DNA of 64,000 nt from Escherichia coli (GTDB lineage: Bacteria > Pseudomonadota > Gammaproteobacteria > Enterobacterales > Enterobacteriaceae), in the NCBI RefSeq assembly GCF_022846255.1, contig NZ_AP025682.1; one strand, 5' to 3'. The notes under the pieces are model-generated. The model did not search any database. It was not told the origin of the DNA and was given only the letters and a program-made list of their open reading frames with translations. The translations under genes were made by a program, and so were the position numbers. This document shows positions 3,031-10,163 of this stretch, piece by piece (the first letter of the stretch is position 1; every line of letters starts with the position of its first letter).

Positions 3031-3786
3031 ATGAAGCTTCGCCTGTCGGCGCTTGCTCTGGGAACTACGCTTCTGGTGGGGTGTGCGAGTTCCGGTACAG
3101 ATCAGCAAGGGCGTTCTGACCCGTTAGAAGGGTTTAACCGCACTATGTACAACTTCAACTTCAATGTATTAGACCCGTATATTGTTCGACCGGTCGCTGT
3201 CGCCTGGCGTGATTATGTTCCGCAACCTGCGCGTAACGGTTTGAGCAACTTTACCGGCAACCTTGAAGAACCTGCGGTGATGGTTAACTACTTCTTGCAG
3301 GGCGACCCTTATCAGGGGATGGTCCACTTTACCCGCTTTTTCCTGAATACCATTTTGGGAATGGGCGGCTTTATTGATGTTGCAGGGATGGCGAACCCGA
3401 AACTGCAACGGACTGAACCTCACCGCTTCGGTAGTACGCTTGGTCATTATGGTGTGGGTTATGGGCCGTACGTTCAGTTACCGTTCTACGGTAGCTTCAC
3501 GCTGCGTGATGACGGTGGTGATATGGCGGATGGTCTTTACCCGGTTCTTTCCTGGCTGACCTGGCCGATGTCTGTGGGTAAATGGACGCTTGAAGGGATA
3601 GAAACTCGTGCGCAGTTGTTGGATTCCGACGGTCTGCTGCGTCAGTCCTCCGATCCTTATATTATGGTGCGTGAAGCGTACTTCCAGCGTCATGATTTCA
3701 TCGCTAATGGCGGTGAACTCAAACCGCAGGAAAATCCGAACGCGCAAGCGATTCAGGATGATTTAAAAGATATCGATTCTGAATAA
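3031..3786 (+). CDS. mlaA: Intermembrane phospholipid transport lipoprotein MlaA (VacJ)
   Basis: 251-aa ORF with lipoprotein signal peptide and lipobox (LLVGCASSG). Confidence 0.93.
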   Translation: MKLRLSALALGTTLLVGCASSGTDQQGRSDPLEGFNRTMYNFNFNVLDPYIVRPVAVAWRDYVPQPARNGLSNFTGNLEEPAVMVNYFLQGDPYQGMVHFTRFFLNTILGMGGFIDVAGMANPKLQRTEPHRFGSTLGHYGVGYGPYVQLPFYGSFTLRDDGGDMADGLYPVLSWLTWPMSVGKWTLEGIETRAQLLDSDGLLRQSSDPYIMVREAYFQRHDFIANGGELKPQENPNAQAIQDDLKDIDSE

Positions 3787-3843: not shown

Positions 3844-5184
3844 TCAGAACGCGTAGTTAAAGTTAGTACCGAACAGCCAGGCTTTACCTTCAGACTCGAA
3901 CTGATATGGGCCTTCGTTAATTTTCACGCTCTGACCGTGCATATAAGAAACACCAACGTCGACTGAAGCGTCTTTATTAAATGCGTAAGTCGTACCTGCA
4001 CTCAGCCAGAAACGGTCCTGGTCCGGAATGGAGATAGAACGATTCTGTGCCGGAACTGGGCTGTCATCAAAGGCGATACCGGTACGGAAGGTCCAGTTAT
4101 CATCGTAGTAATAAGTGGTACCCAACGCGATGCGGTAAGCATCTTTAAAGCCTTCATGTTTCTGGAACAGCGTGTCGCCACTCGTTGAGGTCGCTTTCAG
4201 CTGCTGGAACTGACTCCAGCTGGTGTAAGCCAGGCTATAGTGAATTGCCCACTGCGGAGCAACACGGTTATAACCCGACACTTCCCACATTTCAGGCAGG
4301 TTCAGCGTCAGATAACCTGACTGCGTTGCGCCACCTGTCGCGGTAGGAATTGGCAAACCGTAGTTATTAAAAGCCGGGTTAAGATCGCTGCTGTAGTTAC
4401 CCTTGAAGTCAATTTTCACTTCAGAGCGGTAGGTCAATGCGTAGCGGTTGTTTTTATCCAGTTCATACAGGATACCGGCGTTCCAGCCAAAGCCCCACTG
4501 GTTACCGTTCAGGTGAGCGATTTTGGTATTACTGTCGATGCCGTTGGCGGTAGCTGCTAATGCTTGCCCCTGAGGAGTCAGCCAAGCAGGAGATTGCCTA
4601 ATCTGACCAGCCACCAGTTGCCCCAGATCGCCTGCGAAACGTTCAATTTTCGCGCGAGCGTAGACGGCGTTGAAACCAAGACCAAAGCTCCATGCATTAT
4701 TTAAGCGATATGCACCGCTTAAGTTCAGGTTCATGGTTTCGAGGTCGGTGGTACCACCGACAGAACCGCCTGCATAAGTATCGTTAAACTCTGTCGCCAG
4801 ACCATAGTTAGAGGTAATTGAAGCCCCCCAACCAAATTGGTCGTTAATCGGTGCAACAAAGTGCATGTTCGGAACCCATGCCGTAGGCGCGATGTTATCG
4901 GCTTTCAGGCTACGACCAGACGGAGACGTTCCGCTGATATTTACATCCGGATCAATATAAACCGCACCCGCAGAAAATGTCGGGCGGTCAAACATGGTAA
5001 TCAATGCGGGGTTACGGCTAACGTTACCTGCATCATCGGCAATTGCACCTTCCCCTGAATAAGCCCGGCCCAGGCCAGAGGAAGAAAATTCGTTTAACTG
5101 AAAGCCTGCCGACCAGGCCTGGGTGGAGATAAGTGCCACTGCGACTGCGAGAGCAGACTTTGTAAACAGGGTTTTCTGGCTCAT
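3844..5184 (-). CDS. fadL: Long-chain fatty acid outer membrane transporter FadL
   Basis: ORF-track frame 3844..5190; start trimmed to the third codon ([27 protein letters not shown] signal peptide); ends in the aromatic beta-barrel terminus ...NFNYAF. Confidence 0.93.
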
Positions 5185-5270
5185 GACCATAACCTCAATG
5201 ATTTATTTTTATACAAACTATGTTACGTGCTGTAACAGGAGCGCGAAGTGTAGGGTCTGAGGTACATCTT

Positions 5271-5310
5271 AGAAATCAGACCAGTGGCGAGAGTATAGGT
5301 CGGACCAGCT
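5271..5310 (-). promoter_or_regulatory. Two FadR operator-like sites in the fadL promoter/leader
   Basis: Minus-strand reads AGCTGGTCCGACCTATA (5294-5310) and CACTGGTCTGATTTCT (5271-5286); both fit the FadR TGGTCNGACC core. Confidence 0.6.
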
Positions 5311-5555
5311 GGAATGTTGCAAGTATGTTTCTATTTTTTTTCAGATATGATCTAAGAAACGCGATCCAGCTGGCAAAATTGGGAGGTGGCGCACTCATGG
5401 ATTCGGGTGAATTTTGTTTTAGATCATTTTTAAGTGTGATTTCGGTCACTTATCCGATTTTGCAGAATTAACAACTGGAGCAGCACTTTCCGGAAGCGTA
5501 AAATATCCACAACGTTTATCTGGCACCTTGGGTGCACATACAGAGGAAATCAACG

Positions 5556-5840
5556 ATGAGTAAATGTAGTGCTGATGAAACCCCGGTTTGCTGCTGTATG
5601 GATGTTGGCACCATTATGGACAACTCCGACTGCACCGCGTCTTACAGCCGTGTGTTTGCAAACCGCGCAGAAGCAGAACAAACGCTGGCGGCGCTGACTG
5701 AAAAAGCCCGTAGCGTGGAATCCGAACCGTGCAAAATCACCCCGACTTTCACTGAAGAGTCTGACGGTGTGCGCCTGGATATCGATTTCACTTTTGCCTG
5801 CGAAGCTGAAATGTTGATCTTCCAGCTGGGTCTGCGTTAA
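5556..5840 (+). CDS. yfcZ: UPF0381 family small protein YfcZ
   Basis: 94 codons from ATG 5556, preceded by GAGGAA; translation MSKCSADETPVCCCMDVG...; the ORF-track upstream extension was rejected. Confidence 0.88.
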   Translation: MSKCSADETPVCCCMDVGTIMDNSDCTASYSRVFANRAEAEQTLAALTEKARSVESEPCKITPTFTEESDGVRLDIDFTFACEAEMLIFQLGLR

Positions 5841-5856
5841 TTCCTCTCGGGTATAT

Positions 5857-5893
5857 ACGCCCCTGTCAGTTCCTGGCGGGGGCGTTTTATTTT
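5857..5893 (+). terminator. Intrinsic terminator downstream of yfcZ
   Basis: GC stem ACGCCCC ... GGGGCGT followed by TTTTATTTT. Confidence 0.55.
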
Positions 5894-5976
5894 CTCTTCT
5901 ACTTTTCTCTCTGTGTCATAGCTCCCACTTTCCCTTTTCTCCACTTGGCTAAATGTAAAAAAATGGTTAAGACTAT

Positions 5977-5993
5977 GATCAGGTCAGACCACT
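5977..5993 (-). promoter_or_regulatory. FadR operator-like site upstream of fadIJ
   Basis: Reverse complement reads AGTGGTCTGACCTGATC, a close fit to the FadR consensus, about 30-45 bp upstream of the fadI start. Confidence 0.55.
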
Positions 5994-6020
5994 TTATTTA
6001 TTATTTTACAGGGGAGTGTT

Positions 6021-7331
6021 ATGGGTCAGGTTTTACCGCTGGTTACCCGCCAGGGCGATCGTATCGCCATTGTTAGCGGTTTACGTACGCCTTTTGCCCG
6101 ACAGGCGACGGCTTTTCATGGCATTCCCGCGGTTGATTTAGGGAAGATGGTGGTAGGCGAACTGCTGGCACGCACCGAGATCCCCGCTGAAGTGATTGAA
6201 CAACTGGTCTTCGGTCAGGTCGTTCAGATGCCTGAAGCCCCCAACATTGCGCGTGAAATTGTTCTCGGTACTGGAATGAATGTGCATACCGATGCTTACA
6301 GCGTTAGCCGCGCTTGCGCTACCAGTTTCCAGGCGGTTGCAAACGTCGCAGAAAGCCTGATGGCGGGAACTATTCGAGCGGGGATTGCCGGTGGGGCAGA
6401 TTCCTCTTCCGTATTGCCAATTGGCGTCAGTAAAAAACTGGCGCGCGTACTGGTTGATGTCAACAAAGCCCGCACAATGAGCCAGCGCCTGAAACTTTTT
6501 TCTCGCTTACGTTTGCGTGACTTAATGCCGGTGCCTCCGGCAGTGGCGGAATACTCCACTGGATTACGGATGGGGGACACCGCAGAGCAAATGGCGAAAA
6601 CCTACGGCATCACCCGAGAACAGCAAGATGCACTGGCGCACCGTTCGCATCAGCGTGCCGCTCAGGCGTGGTCAGAAGGTAAACTCAAAGAAGAGGTGAT
6701 GACTGCCTTTATCCCCCCTTATAAACAACCGCTTGTCGAAGACAACAATATTCGCGGTAATTCCTCTCTTGCTGATTACGCAAAGCTGCGCCCGGCGTTT
6801 GATCGTAAACACGGGACGGTAACGGCGGCGAACAGTACGCCGCTGACCGATGGCGCGGCAGCGGTGATCCTGATGACTGAATCCCGGGCGAAAGAATTAG
6901 GGCTGGTACCGCTGGGGTATCTGCGCAGCTACGCATTTACTGCGATAGATGTCTGGCAGGACATGTTGCTCGGTCCAGCCTGGTCAACACCGCTGGCGCT
7001 GGAACGTGCCGGATTGACGATGGGCGATCTGACATTGATCGATATGCACGAAGCCTTTGCCGCCCAGACGCTGGCCAATATTCAGTTGCTGGGTAGCGAA
7101 CGTTTTGCTCGCGACGTACTGGGGCGTGCACATGCCACTGGCGAAGTGGACGAGAGCAAATTTAACGTGCTTGGCGGTTCGATTGCTTATGGGCATCCCT
7201 TCGCAGCGACCGGCGCGCGGATGATTACCCAGACATTGCATGAACTTCGCCGTCGTGGCGGTGGATTTGGTTTAGTGACCGCCTGTGCTGCGGGTGGGCT
7301 TGGCGCAGCAATGGTTCTGGAGGCGGAATAA
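6021..7331 (+). CDS. fadI: 3-ketoacyl-CoA thiolase FadI (anaerobic beta-oxidation)
   Basis: 436-aa ORF with thiolase family signatures, including the C-terminal ...[13 protein letters not shown]. Confidence 0.95.
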
Positions 7332-9475
7332 TGGAAATGGCATCAGCGTTTACTCTTAATGTTCGTCTGGACAACATTGCTATCATCACCATCGACGTAC
7401 CGGGTGAGAAAATGAATACCCTGAAGGCGGAATTTGCCTCGCAGGTACGCGCCATTATTAAGCAACTCCGTGAAAACAAAGAGTTGCGTGGCGTGGTGTT
7501 TGTCTCCGCGAAACCAGACAACTTCATTGCTGGCGCAGACATCAACATGATCGGCAACTGCAAAACGGCGCAAGAAGCGGAAGTACTGGCGCGGCAGGGG
7601 CAACAGTTAATGGCGGAGATTCATGCTTTGCCCATTCCGGTTATCGCGGCTATTCATGGCGCTTGCCTGGGCGGCGGGCTGGAGTTGGCGCTGGCGTGCC
7701 ACGGTCGCGTGTGTACTGACGATCCTAAAACGGTGCTCGGTTTGCCTGAAGTACAACTTGGATTGTTACCCGGTTCAGGCGGTACCCAGCGTTTACCGCG
7801 TCTGATAGGTGTCAGCACAGCATTAGAGATGATCCTCACTGGAAAACAACTTCGGGCGAAACAGGCGGTAAAGCTGGGGTTGGTGGATGACGTCGTTCCG
7901 CACTCCATATTGCTGGAAGCCGCTGTTGAGCTGGCAAAGCAGGATCGCCCATCTTCACGCCCTCTACCTGTTCGCGAGCGTATTCTGGCGGGGCCGTTAG
8001 GTCGTGCGCTGCTGTTCAAAATGGTCGGCAAGAAAACAGAACACAAAACGCAAGGTAACTATCCGGCGACAGAACGCATCCTGGAGGTTGTCGAAACGGG
8101 ATTAGCGCAGGGCACCAGCAGCGGCTATGACGCTGAAGCACGGGCGTTTGGCGAACTGGCGATGACGCCGCAATCGCAGGCGCTGCGCAATATCTTTTTT
8201 GCCAGTACGGAAGTGAAAAAAGATCCCGGCAGTGATGCGCCGCCTGCGCCATTAAACAGCGTGGGGATTTTAGGTGGTGGCTTGATGGGCGGCGGTATTG
8301 CTTATGTCACTGCTTGTAAAGCGGGGCTTCCGGTCAGAATTAAAGATATCAACCCGCGGGGCATAAATCATGCGCTGAAGTACAGTTGGGATCAGCTTGA
8401 GGGCAAAGTTCGCCGTCGTCATCTCAAAGCCAGCGAACGTGACAAACAGCTGGCATTAATCTCCGGAACGACGGACTATTGCGGCTTTGCCCATCGAGAT
8501 CTGATTATTGAAGCGGTGTTTGAAAATCTCGAATTAAAACAACAGATGGTGGCGGAAGTGGAGCAAAATTGCGCTACTCATACCATCTTTGCTTCGAACA
8601 CGTCATCTTTACCGATTGGCGATATCGCCGCTCACGCCGCGCGACCTGAGCAAGTTATTGGCCTGCATTTCTTCAGTCCGGTGGAAAAAATGCCGCTGGT
8701 GGAGATTATTCCTCATGCGAGTACATCGGCGCAAACCATCGCCACCACGGTAAAACTGGCGAAAAAACAGGGCAAAACGCCAATTGTCGTGCGTGACAAA
8801 GCCGGGTTTTACGTCAATCGCATCTTAGCGCCTTACATCAATGAAGCTATCCGCATGTTGACCGAAGGCGAGCGTATTGAGCATATCGATGCCGCGCTGG
8901 TGAAATTTGGTTTTCCGGTAGGCCCAATCCAACTTTTGGATGAGGTAGGAATCGACACCGGGACTAAAATTATTCCTGTACTGGAAGCCGCTTATGGAGA
9001 ACGTTTTAGCGCGCCTGCAAATGTTGTTTCTTCAATTTTGAACGACGATCGCAAAGGCAGAAAAAATGGCCGGGGTTTCTATCTTTATGGTCAGAAAGGG
9101 CGTAAAAGCAAAAAACAGGTCGATCCCGCCATTTACCCGCTCATTGGCGCACAAGGGCAGGGGCGACTCTCCGCACCGCAGGTTGCTGAACGGTGTGTGA
9201 TGTTGATGCTGAATGAAGCTGTACGTTGTCTGGACGAGCAGGTTATCCGTAGCGTGCGTGACGGGGATATTGGCGCGGTATTTGGCATTGGTTTTCCGCC
9301 ATTTCTCGGTGGTCCGTTCCGCTACATCGATTCTCTCGGTGCGGGTGAAGTGGTTGCAATAATGCAACGACTGGCCACGCAGTATGGTTCCCGTTTTACC
9401 CCTTGCGATCGTTTAGTTGAGATGAGCGAGCGTGGGGAAAGTTTTTGGAAAACAACTGCAACTGACCTGCAATAA
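7331..9475 (+). CDS. fadJ: Multifunctional fatty acid oxidation complex alpha subunit FadJ (enoyl-CoA hydratase / 3-hydroxyacyl-CoA dehydrogenase)
   Basis: 714-aa ORF; ATG overlaps the fadI stop (TAATGG), suggesting translational coupling; carries crotonase-fold and NAD-binding [10 protein letters not shown] motifs. Confidence 0.95.
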
Positions 9476-9677: not shown

Positions 9678-10163
9678 ATGCAAGTTTTTATCATGCGTCA
9701 CGGCGACGCAGCCCTCGATGCCGCCAGTGATTCGGTTCGTCCTCTGACCACTAACGGTTGTGACGAATCTCGCCTGATGGCGAACTGGCTGAAAGGTCAA
9801 AAAGTGGAAATCGAACGCGTTCTGGTGAGCCCGTTCCTGCGAGCCGAGCAAACACTGGAAGAAGTAGGGGATTGTCTGAACCTGCCTTCCAGTGCAGAAG
9901 TTCTGCCGGAGTTAACGCCCTGCGGCGATGTTGGTCTGGTCGGCGCCTATTTGCAGGCGTTGACCAATGAAGGTGTTGCTTCGGTACTGGTGATCTCCCA
10001 CTTACCGTTAGTCGGGTATCTGGTTGCCGAGTTATGTCCGGGCGAAACGCCGCCTATGTTTACCACGTCAGCGATTGCCAGCGTAACGCTTGATGAAAGC
10101 GGAAAAGGCCAATTCAACTGGCAAATGAGCCCTTGTAATTTGAAGATGGCAAAAGCAATTTAA
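9678..10163 (+). CDS. sixA: Phosphohistidine phosphatase SixA
   Basis: 161-aa ORF starting MQVFIMRHGDA (RHG histidine-phosphatase motif). Confidence 0.92.
   Translation: MQVFIMRHGDAALDAASDSVRPLTTNGCDESRLMANWLKGQKVEIERVLVSPFLRAEQTLEEVGDCLNLPSSAEVLPELTPCGDVGLVGAYLQALTNEGVASVLVISHLPLVGYLVAELCPGETPPMFTTSAIASVTLDESGKGQFNWQMSPCNLKMAKAI

Follow-up and report, generated by a model that had tools for sequence, protein, structure and literature searches.

The operators of the FadR regulon summarised by Feng and Cronan (2012, PMC3460868) control fadL and fadIJ, and in that work both FadR boxes between fadL and yfcZ cover positions -25 to +16 of the fadL promoter, with the fadL ArcA site placed 5 bp from FadR site 1. 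The same study described a site, fadL-CRP-site1, that is bound by cAMP-CRP in EMSA and lies at -157 of fadL, which its authors regarded as 'too far upstream' for the usual mechanism; fadL-lacZ was the sole reporter tested for this site, and yfcZ was never considered. In class I CRP promoters the site is centred near -61.5, -71.5, -82.5 or -92.5. The protein family of YfcZ, variously named YfcZ/YiiS, DUF406 or UPF0381, is represented by NMR structures of the E. coli/Shigella paralogue YiiS (2k3i) and of the Vibrio proteins VC_A0919 (2khd) and VPA0419 (2jz5). The NMR family paper describes the function as unknown and the papers examined that mention yfcZ, DUF406 or yiiS give none, so that the first-pass annotation of this DNA was right to call the protein uncharacterised.

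We examined yfcZ within a 64-kb stretch of Escherichia coli DNA, referred to below as the window. The genes relevant to the comparison are as follows.

3844-5190, minus strand: fadL, with its ATG at 5190 (or at 5184 for the MSQKT start), a Toluene_X match (5.2e-168) and RefSeq annotation
5556-5840, plus strand: yfcZ coding sequence, 94 aa, DUF406 (YfcZ/YiiS family), seven cysteines, containing PVCCCMDVG
5857-5895, plus strand: intrinsic terminator of yfcZ found by terminator scan, a 13-pair stem with 9 G-C pairs followed by TTTTATTTTCT
6021-7331, plus strand: fadI, first gene of the anaerobic beta-oxidation operon (Pfam thiolase and 3HCDH/ECH domains for fadI and fadJ)
7331-9475, plus strand: fadJ, second gene of that operon

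Translation from the ATG at 5556, within an enclosing open reading frame at 5532-5840 on the plus strand, yields a product beginning MSKCSADETPVCCCMDVG, of 10.3 kDa and pI 4.25, with 17 D+E vs 8 K+R residues. It matches PF04175 (DUF406) in Pfam over residues 3-94 (1.3e-36, 125.4 bits against a cut-off of 25) and TIGR00743 (1.5e-46, 157.2 bits against a cut-off of 71.45), and RefSeq labels the gene 'yfcZ: YfcZ/YiiS family protein'. The initial description of a 94-residue, PVCCCMDVG-containing product transcribed divergently from fadL thus agrees with the reading frame, the profile matches and the RefSeq annotation. Of 5426 complete E. coli genomes, 5425 carry the yfcZ region at >=95% identity. 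The terminator hairpin occupies 5857-5885 with the T-run after it, and both stem arms and the T-run are conserved among the species compared; with this strong terminator and a predicted promoter of its own (see below), yfcZ would form an independently transcribed single-gene unit.

The gene, its divergence from fadL and the FadR boxes are already annotated or published. Because the original observation re-describes them, it changes nothing by itself; the new lead is that the pairing of yfcZ with fadL is retained in distantly related bacteria. We tentatively favour, with a confidence a little short of even, the reading that YfcZ is a CRP-controlled cytoplasmic metal/redox-cysteine protein associated with FadL-mediated uptake, expressed from its own promoter and not a direct target of FadR.

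Conservation of the fadL-yfcZ pair

The order mlaA-fadL<->yfcZ-fadIJ-sixA is found in 80 Enterobacteriaceae species, where the fadL-yfcZ spacer measures 365-381 bp (371 bp in E. coli). Beyond this family, fadL stands head-to-head with a DUF406 gene in Proteus, in Haemophilus influenzae and in a second, Pasteurellaceae-like genome. All other neighbors at the latter two loci are different and fadIJ is absent, while the short Proteus contig does not reach the genes flanking the pair. A looser association is seen in two Alteromonadales-like genomes, in which a Toluene_X (FadL-family) gene lies 2-4 genes from the DUF406 gene. The profile scan covered the 80 Enterobacteriaceae, and the distant contexts come from 12 exact-protein look-ups, several of them on short contigs; among the non-Enterobacteriaceae loci covered far enough, none has fadIJ beside yfcZ. 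The pairing was seen only for YfcZ-type genes among those examined, and the structure-solved yiiS and Vibrio genes lie outside this comparison.

Judged from gene order, the link of yfcZ is to fadL and not to fadIJ. The first-pass annotation had suggested, short of proof, a role in fatty-acid or redox metabolism on the basis of a position between fadL and fadIJ. The fatty-acid part of that suggestion is plausible, since a FadL-family gene is still paired with the DUF406 gene in Proteus, H. influenzae and the Pasteurellaceae-like genome while other neighbors differ. The fadIJ part is unsupported: a strong terminator separates yfcZ from fadI, the FadR box in between belongs to the fadI promoter, and fadIJ is missing at the distant loci covered far enough. 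The retention of the pair across Enterobacterales and Pasteurellaceae provides a concrete first lead on function, pointing to uptake and not to beta-oxidation, and we propose that YfcZ may act together with FadL-type uptake of fatty or other hydrophobic acids. A more specific version of this proposal is that YfcZ is a cytoplasmic partner of FadL whose cysteine cluster, made up of a flexible CCC tail and of C26, C59 and C82 at one pole, binds a metal or Fe-S center or is transiently S-acylated or oxidised, the CRP site of the spacer being primarily the class I activator site of yfcZ or bidirectional. We give this only a slim chance; if it is true, the ancient head-to-head coupling with fadL would reflect the handling of incoming long-chain or hydrophobic acids.

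The adjacency may instead carry no functional meaning, yfcZ being an old neighbor of fadL that was kept by descent or by interlocked promoters and that serves an unrelated process. The Enterobacteriaceae loci are all close relatives, and at least four other DUF406 genes are found away from any fadL-family gene, in the contexts of tfoX, macAB/ppiD, clpB/osmC and uvrD. For yiiS, the E. coli paralogue, membership in other regulons (YdeO/GadE) is reported, and no lipid phenotype of yfcZ appears in the papers examined that mention the gene. Shared ancestry, rather than selection, could account for some of the synteny. Against this, the pair survives across Enterobacterales, Pasteurellaceae and, loosely, Alteromonadales-like genomes while the other flanking genes have been replaced, as is usual when the pairing itself is under selection. 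We regard an accidental association as doubtful, though with an appreciable chance of being correct, and prefer the reading in which YfcZ is associated with FadL-mediated uptake.

FadR operators in the fadL-yfcZ spacer

The sites bearing on FadR control are listed here.

5270-5286, minus strand: FadR operator 2 of fadL, CACTGGTCTGATTTCTA, which spans the start of fadL transcription (3 mismatches; conservation 0.96 in 81 sequences)
5294-5310, minus strand: FadR operator 1 of fadL, AGCTGGTCCGACCTATA, lying over the fadL -10/-35 (1 mismatch; conservation 0.95)
5315-5330, no strand assigned: ArcA-type direct repeat, TGTTGCAAGTATGTTT, adjoining FadR operator 1, with probable limits
5978-5994, no strand assigned: FadR operator of fadIJ, ATCAGGTCAGACCACTT, which precedes the fadI ATG by 27 bp (matching the pattern with 2 mismatches on either strand; 0.98 conserved across 78 sequences)

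A search with the FadR pattern allowing up to 3 mismatches gave 18 matches in the 64 kb, against 13 expected, a count that is not above chance. Despite this, the boxes can be taken as real because of their high conservation (95-98% vs a background of 67-82% in 80 Enterobacteriaceae species) and their identity to the probes of Feng and Cronan. Operator 2 is identical to the fadL-FadR-site2 probe (PMC3460868), operator 1 is the LldR/FadR-type box of PMC10272880, and all three boxes in the window correspond to published operators matching the consensus ANCTGGTCNGACNTNTT. The claim of two FadR boxes in the fadL-yfcZ spacer and a third before fadI is therefore sound. Within the ArcA-type repeat, TGTTGCAA and the TGT that follows are invariant in the 81 sequences, and the same block occurs in Proteus (L081).

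These operators raise the possibility that yfcZ itself belongs to the FadR regulon, repressed through the two spacer operators, derepressed by acyl-CoA and acting in degradation with fadL and fadIJ. Both boxes lie within the 371-bp spacer and are 95-96% conserved, their spacing to the yfcZ promoter elements never varies, and nitrogen depletion lowers the mRNAs of fadL and yfcZ together (PMC8743547). In addition, LldR, a FadR-family regulator that binds the same two boxes, is reported to activate yfcZ, changing its mRNA more than 2-fold (PMC10272880), so that binding there may influence yfcZ after all. The geometry of the published operators nevertheless argues against direct repression of yfcZ. 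The boxes sit on the fadL promoter, some 190-230 bp upstream of the predicted promoter of yfcZ; their centres fall roughly 209 and 233 bp before its predicted start, a distance from which no FadR repression is known, and the control of yfcZ implied by the first-pass annotation is thus unsupported. No FadR operator overlaps or adjoins the predicted promoter of yfcZ, the H. influenzae fadL-yfcZ spacer has no FadR-like box, and the papers examined that mention yfcZ report neither FadR nor oleate effects on its expression. The terminator before fadIJ and the absence of fadIJ at the distant loci covered far enough likewise speak against a shared degradation role. We consider membership in the FadR regulon unlikely; the spacer operators belong to the fadL promoter, and yfcZ is probably not a direct FadR target. 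The mRNAs of fadL and yfcZ move together in both the rpoN/nitrogen and the lldR experiments (PMC8743547, PMC10272880), and yfcZ may co-vary with fadL because the two genes share a control region of invariant spacing.

Predicted yfcZ promoter, CRP site and leader repeat

Upstream of yfcZ, the following elements were recognised.

5432-5453, no strand assigned: CRP site, AAGTGTGATTTCGGTCACTTAT, centred at 5442.5 (conservation 0.94)
5499-5504, plus strand: predicted yfcZ -10 hexamer TAAAAT, invariant in 81 sequences, with a predicted start near 5511
5521-5536, plus strand: inverted repeat GCACC-TTG-GGTGC in the yfcZ leader, which in E. coli reads TGGCAC-N5-GTGCA and resembles a sigma-54 -24/-12 element
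5542-5548, plus strand: yfcZ Shine-Dalgarno sequence AGAGGAA, 90-100% conserved

The consensus promoter scan did not call a yfcZ promoter because its -35 is weak, and the candidate was found via conservation instead. TAAAAT is the best conserved block of the spacer (1.00 vs a background of 0.67-0.79), and its distance to the ATG is 55-60 bp in 74 of 76 species. The CRP site, which is identical to fadL-CRP-site1 (PMC3460868), is centred 56.5 bp from this hexamer in 73 of 76 species, corresponding to -68.5 to -70.5 of the predicted yfcZ start. The arrangement resembles a class I CRP promoter in that a near-consensus site, TGTGA-N6-TCAC, stands at a fixed distance upstream of a promoter whose -35 is weak and whose -10 is good; it differs in a predicted position slightly off-register, by 1-3 bp from the canonical -71.5, and in the published assignment of the site to fadL, at -157. 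The distance from the CRP site to the fadL promoter is no less constant, at 138.5 bp (74 of 74 species), and its -157.5 position is roughly in helical phase, so that CRP could serve fadL, yfcZ or both. Catabolite control of yfcZ through the site near -69 appears the most likely arrangement. The only experimentally verified CRP site of the 'fadL promoter' would then be much better placed for yfcZ, and the odd distance that struck Feng and Cronan may be explained in this way.

YfcZ counts among the conserved E. coli orphan proteins that are well expressed. In strain O157:H7, yfcZ was up 3-fold together with FNR-type genes on oxygen limitation (PMC2241611). An FNR box (TTGAT-N4-ATCAA) was not apparent by eye in the E. 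coli fadL-yfcZ spacer, nor was one detected by regular-expression scan in the Proteus, H. influenzae, Pasteurellaceae-like and Alteromonadales-like spacers. The yfcZ mRNA has been studied from its native promoter (PMC8565310), and a dCas9 off-target site in the yfcZ promoter silences the gene (PMC10123097). Elsewhere yfcZ is a single-table entry, in papers on copper evolution, colistin TraDIS, the AHL proteome and the iron-halide proteome; the copper-evolution entry, 'yfcZ/fadL A262E', is ambiguous as to the gene affected.

Between the predicted start and the ATG lies the leader repeat, four stem pairs of which are kept in 78-79 of 81 sequences, with a compensatory fifth pair in three. The element also has the -24 GG and -12 GC of sigma-54 promoters in the 11-bp register (TGGCACCTTGGGTGCA, 5521-5536). 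In gSELEX, binding to the fadL-yfcZ spacer was reported for RpoN holoenzyme and for NtrC, the RpoN peak being 13 bp upstream of the yfcZ ATG and coinciding with the repeat, and the spacer also served as a gel-shift probe (PMC8743547). Its authors propose a repressor role, having found repression and not activation. In spite of the right spacing, the element is unlike a productive promoter for yfcZ. Transcription starting about 12 nt past the GC (near 5546) would begin inside the Shine-Dalgarno sequence and leave most of it outside the transcript, and no productive, translatable mRNA would be expected. One species, a Leclercia (L075), is without the motif and carries a different stem that is again complementary, an argument that selection acts on a hairpin. 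Folding of the predicted leader (5511-5570) gave no thermodynamic signal relative to shuffled sequences (z = -0.62), RNAalifold retained nothing beyond the 4-bp stem and showed hardly any covariation, and an Rfam scan of 5100-6100 at E<=1 returned no known RNA, only a sub-threshold Spot 42 match (19.9 bits vs a gathering threshold of 80). From its sequence, the repeat may be a hairpin, a sigma-54 element or a palindromic protein-binding site.

The YfcZ domain and its cysteines

In the AF2 model of YfcZ, the core is predicted with pLDDT >90 and residues 1-21 with pLDDT <50. The model has the fold of the family, in which two helices lie against a single face of a three-stranded antiparallel sheet (order A-C-B) and the N-terminus is disordered, and the protein matches the NMR-solved relatives 2k3i (1e-16), 2khd and 2jz5. 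The core would be read as a beta-alpha-beta-beta-alpha fold, and the flexible tail at the N-terminus, ahead of it, carries C12, C13 and C14. The triple cysteine noted in the first-pass annotation is present, but describes the protein incompletely, as there are seven cysteines overall (C4, C12, C13, C14, C26, C59 and C82); seven in 94 residues has P ~1e-4 at an assumed proteome frequency of 1.15%. In 36 diverse members, cysteine is conserved at position 12 in 32, at 13 in 25, at 14 in 23, at 26 in 23, at 59 in 28 and at 82 in 31. The C-terminal motif F-x-C-Q/E-A-E...I-F is also found in YfcZ, with F80 in 36/36, E85 in 34/36 and F89 in 34/36.

According to the predicted fold, C26 would lie at the start of strand 1, C59 at the start of strand 2 and C82 at the start of helix 2. 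Given the sheet order A-C-B, we infer that these three residues converge on one pole of the domain, near the almost invariant E85, where they may be capped by the CCC tail and form a metal or Fe-S site or a redox-thiol site. The redox/metal role suggested at the outset is plausible in view of the six conserved cysteines and the induction on oxygen limitation, the function itself remaining conjectural. No Fe-S or metal family was matched by YfcZ in Pfam. The NMR preparations of YiiS and VPA0419, which were aerobic and contained DTT, are monomers with no bound metal reported, their N-termini being disordered or removed. YiiS differs from YfcZ in having a single cysteine (GCA) at the position of the CCC and in lacking the cysteine of the SEPC motif (C59), and the two Vibrio proteins lack most of the cysteine positions of YfcZ but keep E85. 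Since the Vibrio structures are without most of the cysteines and some members have few, the cysteines cannot define the core function of the family.

A different view of the domain is that of a small enzyme or ligand binder organised around the conserved glutamate (E85; Glu89 in YiiS), with a surface like that of DCoH/pterin-carbinolamine dehydratase (PCD), as the NMR authors proposed, and the cysteines being secondary. F80, E85 and F89 are conserved at the counts given above, E85 persists in both Vibrio proteins, which lack most of the cysteine positions, and the NMR authors, who aligned the structure to DCoH, report that conserved residues of the family lie on the corresponding surface. The same paper states, on the other hand, that the PCD ligand-binding residues are not conserved, and in most sampled members C12, C59 and C82 are conserved to about the same degree as E85. 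We assign a glutamate-centred site a small probability and retain the metal/redox-cysteine reading for YfcZ. A role in RNA binding or regulation, by analogy with the RRM/S10-like split beta-alpha-beta fold, is very improbable, as that fold is very common, YfcZ is strongly acidic, and according to the NMR authors the surface of the sheet is neutral and RNA-binding residues are not conserved.

The six-cysteine pattern offers a simple handle for mutants and for metal or redox assays, and a function for YfcZ, if established, would supply a missing piece in the picture of how fatty acids enter the gamma-proteobacterial cytoplasm. As a separate observation, the representative search for family members returned some long matches made up of multiple stretches, which are likely to reflect low-complexity, Ala/Glu-rich helix rather than domain fusions.

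Gene order around yfcZ

The window comes from the E. coli chromosome. Of 5426 complete E. coli genomes, 5425 contain the interval 5100-6100 at 95% identity or more, annotated there as fadL, yfcZ ('YfcZ/YiiS family protein') and fadI. The span that the first-pass annotation had assigned to the yfcZ feature, 5185-5893, begins exactly at the base next to the fadL start codon and stops where the yfcZ terminator ends.

Features of the yfcZ locus and its surroundings (window positions)
336-1529, minus: P4-type integrase ORF
1655-1729, minus: tRNA-Arg(CCT)
1805-2737, minus: 310-aa membrane-protein ORF, which we take to be yfdC
3031-3786, plus: 251-aa ORF, the 'MlaA' query of the synteny search, presumably mlaA
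3844-5190, minus: fadL
5270-5286, minus: FadR-type box (operator 2), consensus match
5294-5310, minus: FadR-type box (operator 1), consensus match
5432-5453: CRP site AAGTGTGATTTCGGTCACTTAT, between the fadL and predicted yfcZ promoters, the same as 'fadL CRP site 1'
5523-5535: conserved inverted repeat GCACC-TTG-GGTGC in the yfcZ leader
5556-5840, plus: yfcZ
5857-5885 plus T-run: yfcZ terminator, 13 pairs, G+C-rich
5978-5994: FadR-type box before fadI, consensus match
6021-7331: fadI
7331-9475: fadJ
9678-10163: 161-aa ORF, the 'SixA' query of the synteny search, presumably sixA

The terminator separates yfcZ from fadIJ. At the far end of the region, the integrase ORF directly adjoins the tRNA-Arg(CCT) gene on the same strand, an arrangement typical of a genomic-island integration site.

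The order mlaA-fadL<->yfcZ-fadI-fadJ-sixA is kept in 80 Enterobacteriaceae species wherever the contig is long enough, with a fadL-yfcZ spacer of 365-381 bp; these species are too closely related to inform by themselves. We recovered distant contexts by exact-protein look-ups of distant representatives of DUF406, the family of YfcZ. The divergent upstream gene in Proteus (YfcZ 60% identical) is fadL. The DUF406 gene of Haemophilus influenzae (44% identical) and a FadL-family gene that shares 40% identity with E. coli FadL are likewise arranged head-to-head. One flank of this pair holds ogt and mutH, the other a metallophosphatase, a NUDIX gene and xseA, and fadIJ is absent from this locus. The fadL/DUF406 pair of a second Pasteurellaceae-like genome lies between ogt and hcr/hcp. 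In two Alteromonadales-like genomes (Corallincola; CP096670.1) a FadL-family gene is found two to four genes from the DUF406 gene, beside which an ECF sigma/anti-sigma pair has been inserted, and four other DUF406 genes occur in unrelated contexts. Since several distant loci keep a fadL partner while their other neighbours change, the association that outlasts changes in gene order is yfcZ-fadL and not yfcZ-fadIJ. The first-pass interpretation is thereby partly right: a connection of yfcZ to the fatty-acid neighbourhood is supported, with fadL and not with FadR or fadIJ as the partner.

Two features of these distant loci were noticed in passing. The pair inserted in the Alteromonadales-like loci (L094, 2571-3849; L090, 2539-3832) consists of an ECF sigma factor and a DUF3379 protein, possibly the anti-sigma factor, between the FadL-family and DUF406 genes; both loci have a BatD/VWA/TPR cluster downstream, and BatD is also found downstream in L092, the second contig with the Celerinatantimonas-type protein. 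In one H. influenzae assembly (L083, 4426-5722) the FadL-family gene matches in two pieces and is not called as a gene, which may reflect a frameshift or a pseudogene; its DUF406 neighbour is intact.

FadR operators, CRP and the predicted yfcZ promoter

We searched the window for FadR boxes using the consensus ANCTGGTCNGACNTNTT with up to 3 mismatches. The whole window holds 18 matches against 13 expected, which is not above chance, and a pattern match alone is no proof. The two spacer boxes and the one before fadI are nonetheless genuine, because they are the same sequences as the probes of Feng and Cronan 2012 (PMC3460868) and are conserved. Across the aligned spacers of 80 Enterobacteriaceae species and the window (81 sequences), the two boxes are conserved at 95-96% versus a background of 67-79%; the fadI box is 98% conserved. 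The first-pass annotation was accurate in reporting these three boxes, but the operators were already known from the literature. The fadL homologues of Proteus and of the second Pasteurellaceae-like genome are also preceded by a FadR-like box, with 2 and 3 mismatches respectively; the same search upstream of the H. influenzae homologue found none.

With the reported fadL start, 95 bp upstream of the fadL ATG, both spacer boxes fall between about -25 and +16 of that promoter, and an ArcA site lies 5 bp past them (PMC3460868). The most conserved spacer block in the 81 sequences is an invariant TAAAAT at 5499-5504, 190 bp beyond the FadR boxes and 55-60 bp upstream of the yfcZ ATG in 74 of 76 species. 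We read it as the predicted -10 hexamer of yfcZ, with a predicted start near 5511. The FadR box centres would then lie about 209 and 233 bp upstream of this start, a position from which repressors do not normally act. This geometry does not support direct FadR control of yfcZ.

A different candidate regulator lies between the two promoters. The CRP site bound cAMP-CRP in EMSA; at -157 of fadL, it was considered atypical by the authors, 'too far upstream' for the RNA polymerase alpha-CTD, and yfcZ is absent from the text of that paper (PMC3460868). The distance from the CRP centre to TAAAAT is 56.5 bp in 73 of 76 species; relative to the predicted yfcZ start, the centre would be at about -68.5 to -70.5, near a class I position. 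Spacing to FadR operator 1 is likewise constant (138.5 bp in 74/74 species), and the 235-bp core from FadR operator 2 through the yfcZ -10 has no indels. CRP may serve the fadL promoter, the yfcZ promoter or both, so that 5432-5453 may belong to yfcZ or act bidirectionally. In the model we propose, yfcZ would be a monocistronic, CRP-activated gene; we hold the regulatory anatomy with moderate confidence.

Two other parts of the spacer are strongly conserved. The block TTTTAGATCATTTTTAAG (5414-5431), directly beside the CRP site, is near-invariant in the 81 sequences, and no factor was matched to it. The 95-nt fadL leader (5185-5269) has a conservation of 0.89, unusually high for non-coding sequence, and is where the spacer length variation is located. 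The fadL mRNA is a target of RybB, a sigma-E-dependent small RNA, and such targeting could account for the conservation of the leader.

The inverted repeat in the yfcZ leader doubles in E. coli as a sigma-54 -24/-12-like element, TGGCAC-N5-GTGCA (5521-5536). The RpoN/NtrC gSELEX peak, located 13 bp before the yfcZ ATG, falls in the same place (PMC8743547), as does, in our reading, the dCas9 off-target ACCCA+AGG that silences yfcZ (PMC10123097). The Leclercia locus (L075) forms the stem from another sequence that is perfectly complementary, and a compensatory fifth pair is present in three species; because the stem does not vary elsewhere, its sequence does not separate the hairpin and sigma-54 readings.

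Published expression data describe co-variation of yfcZ and fadL, and those that we found do not address FadR. Nitrogen depletion lowers both mRNAs about 3-fold (PMC8743547), and LldR, a FadR-family protein using the same two boxes, is reported as an activator of both genes (PMC10272880). A gSELEX peak of the RpoE holoenzyme likewise falls within the spacer. In O157:H7 at oxygen exhaustion yfcZ rises 3-fold alongside pflB, ackA, yfiD, hyp and nrd genes (PMC2241611), and yfcZ mRNA transcribed from its native promoter is a standard RppH-dependent decay substrate (PMC8565310).

The cysteine pattern of YfcZ

The yfcZ product (94 aa, MSKCSADETPVCCCMDVGTIMDNSDC...) matches Pfam DUF406 (1.3e-36) and TIGR00743 (1.5e-46), is acidic (pI 4.25) and has no signal-peptide-like sequence at its N-terminus. 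DUF406 is a small family: 1.84 billion representatives contain 108 clusters of it at 50% identity, and NMR structures have been solved for three relatives (YiiS 2k3i, VC_A0919 2khd, VPA0419 2jz5). According to the NMR paper, the family is confined to gamma-proteobacteria and has no known function; its members are monomers built from two helices and a three-stranded sheet of strand order A-C-B, resemble DCoH-like and RRM-like structures, and have a Glu as the most conserved residue, while the N-terminus is disordered in YiiS and was left out of the VPA0419 construct (PMC2860719).

YfcZ has seven Cys among its 94 residues. Among 36 diverse members, six are widely kept (C12 in 32, C13 in 25, C14 in 23, C26 in 23, C59 in 28 and C82 in 31), as is E85 (34/36), indicating that the 'CCC' motif is the most conspicuous part of a six-Cys pattern that is conserved. 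C26 begins strand A, C59 begins strand B and C82 lies in the turn into helix II; from the sheet order, these three should lie at one sheet end, beside E85. Together with a flexible CCC cap, this is plausibly the arrangement expected of a metal/Fe-S or redox-thiol site. Three observations count against such a site: the aerobic NMR preparations of the paralogues, which contained DTT, had no reported metal; most Cys positions are missing in the Vibrio members whose structures are solved; and there is no match to any known metal-binding family. The redox role suggested by the first-pass annotation, or a metal role, is plausible from Cys conservation. In the proposed model YfcZ would be a cytoplasmic cysteine-cluster protein acting alongside FadL-mediated uptake; our confidence in this biochemical function is low.

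Divergent fadL alleles within E. coli

Within E. coli, fadL falls into two deeply diverged classes of allele. Over the central 500 bp (4250-4750) of the coding stretch 3900-4900, identity is 60-80% in 1212 and at least 90% in 4170 of the 5425 complete genomes, and the adjacent spacer and yfcZ are at least 95% identical in all 5425. In comparisons with the E. coli loci L002 and L003, the drop in identity (to 0.55-0.79) is confined to the fadL coding sequence, and the flanks stay at 0.91-0.99. This pattern points to replacement of the allele or to diversifying selection acting on the outer-membrane protein, with yfcZ and the promoter region lying outside the swapped segment.
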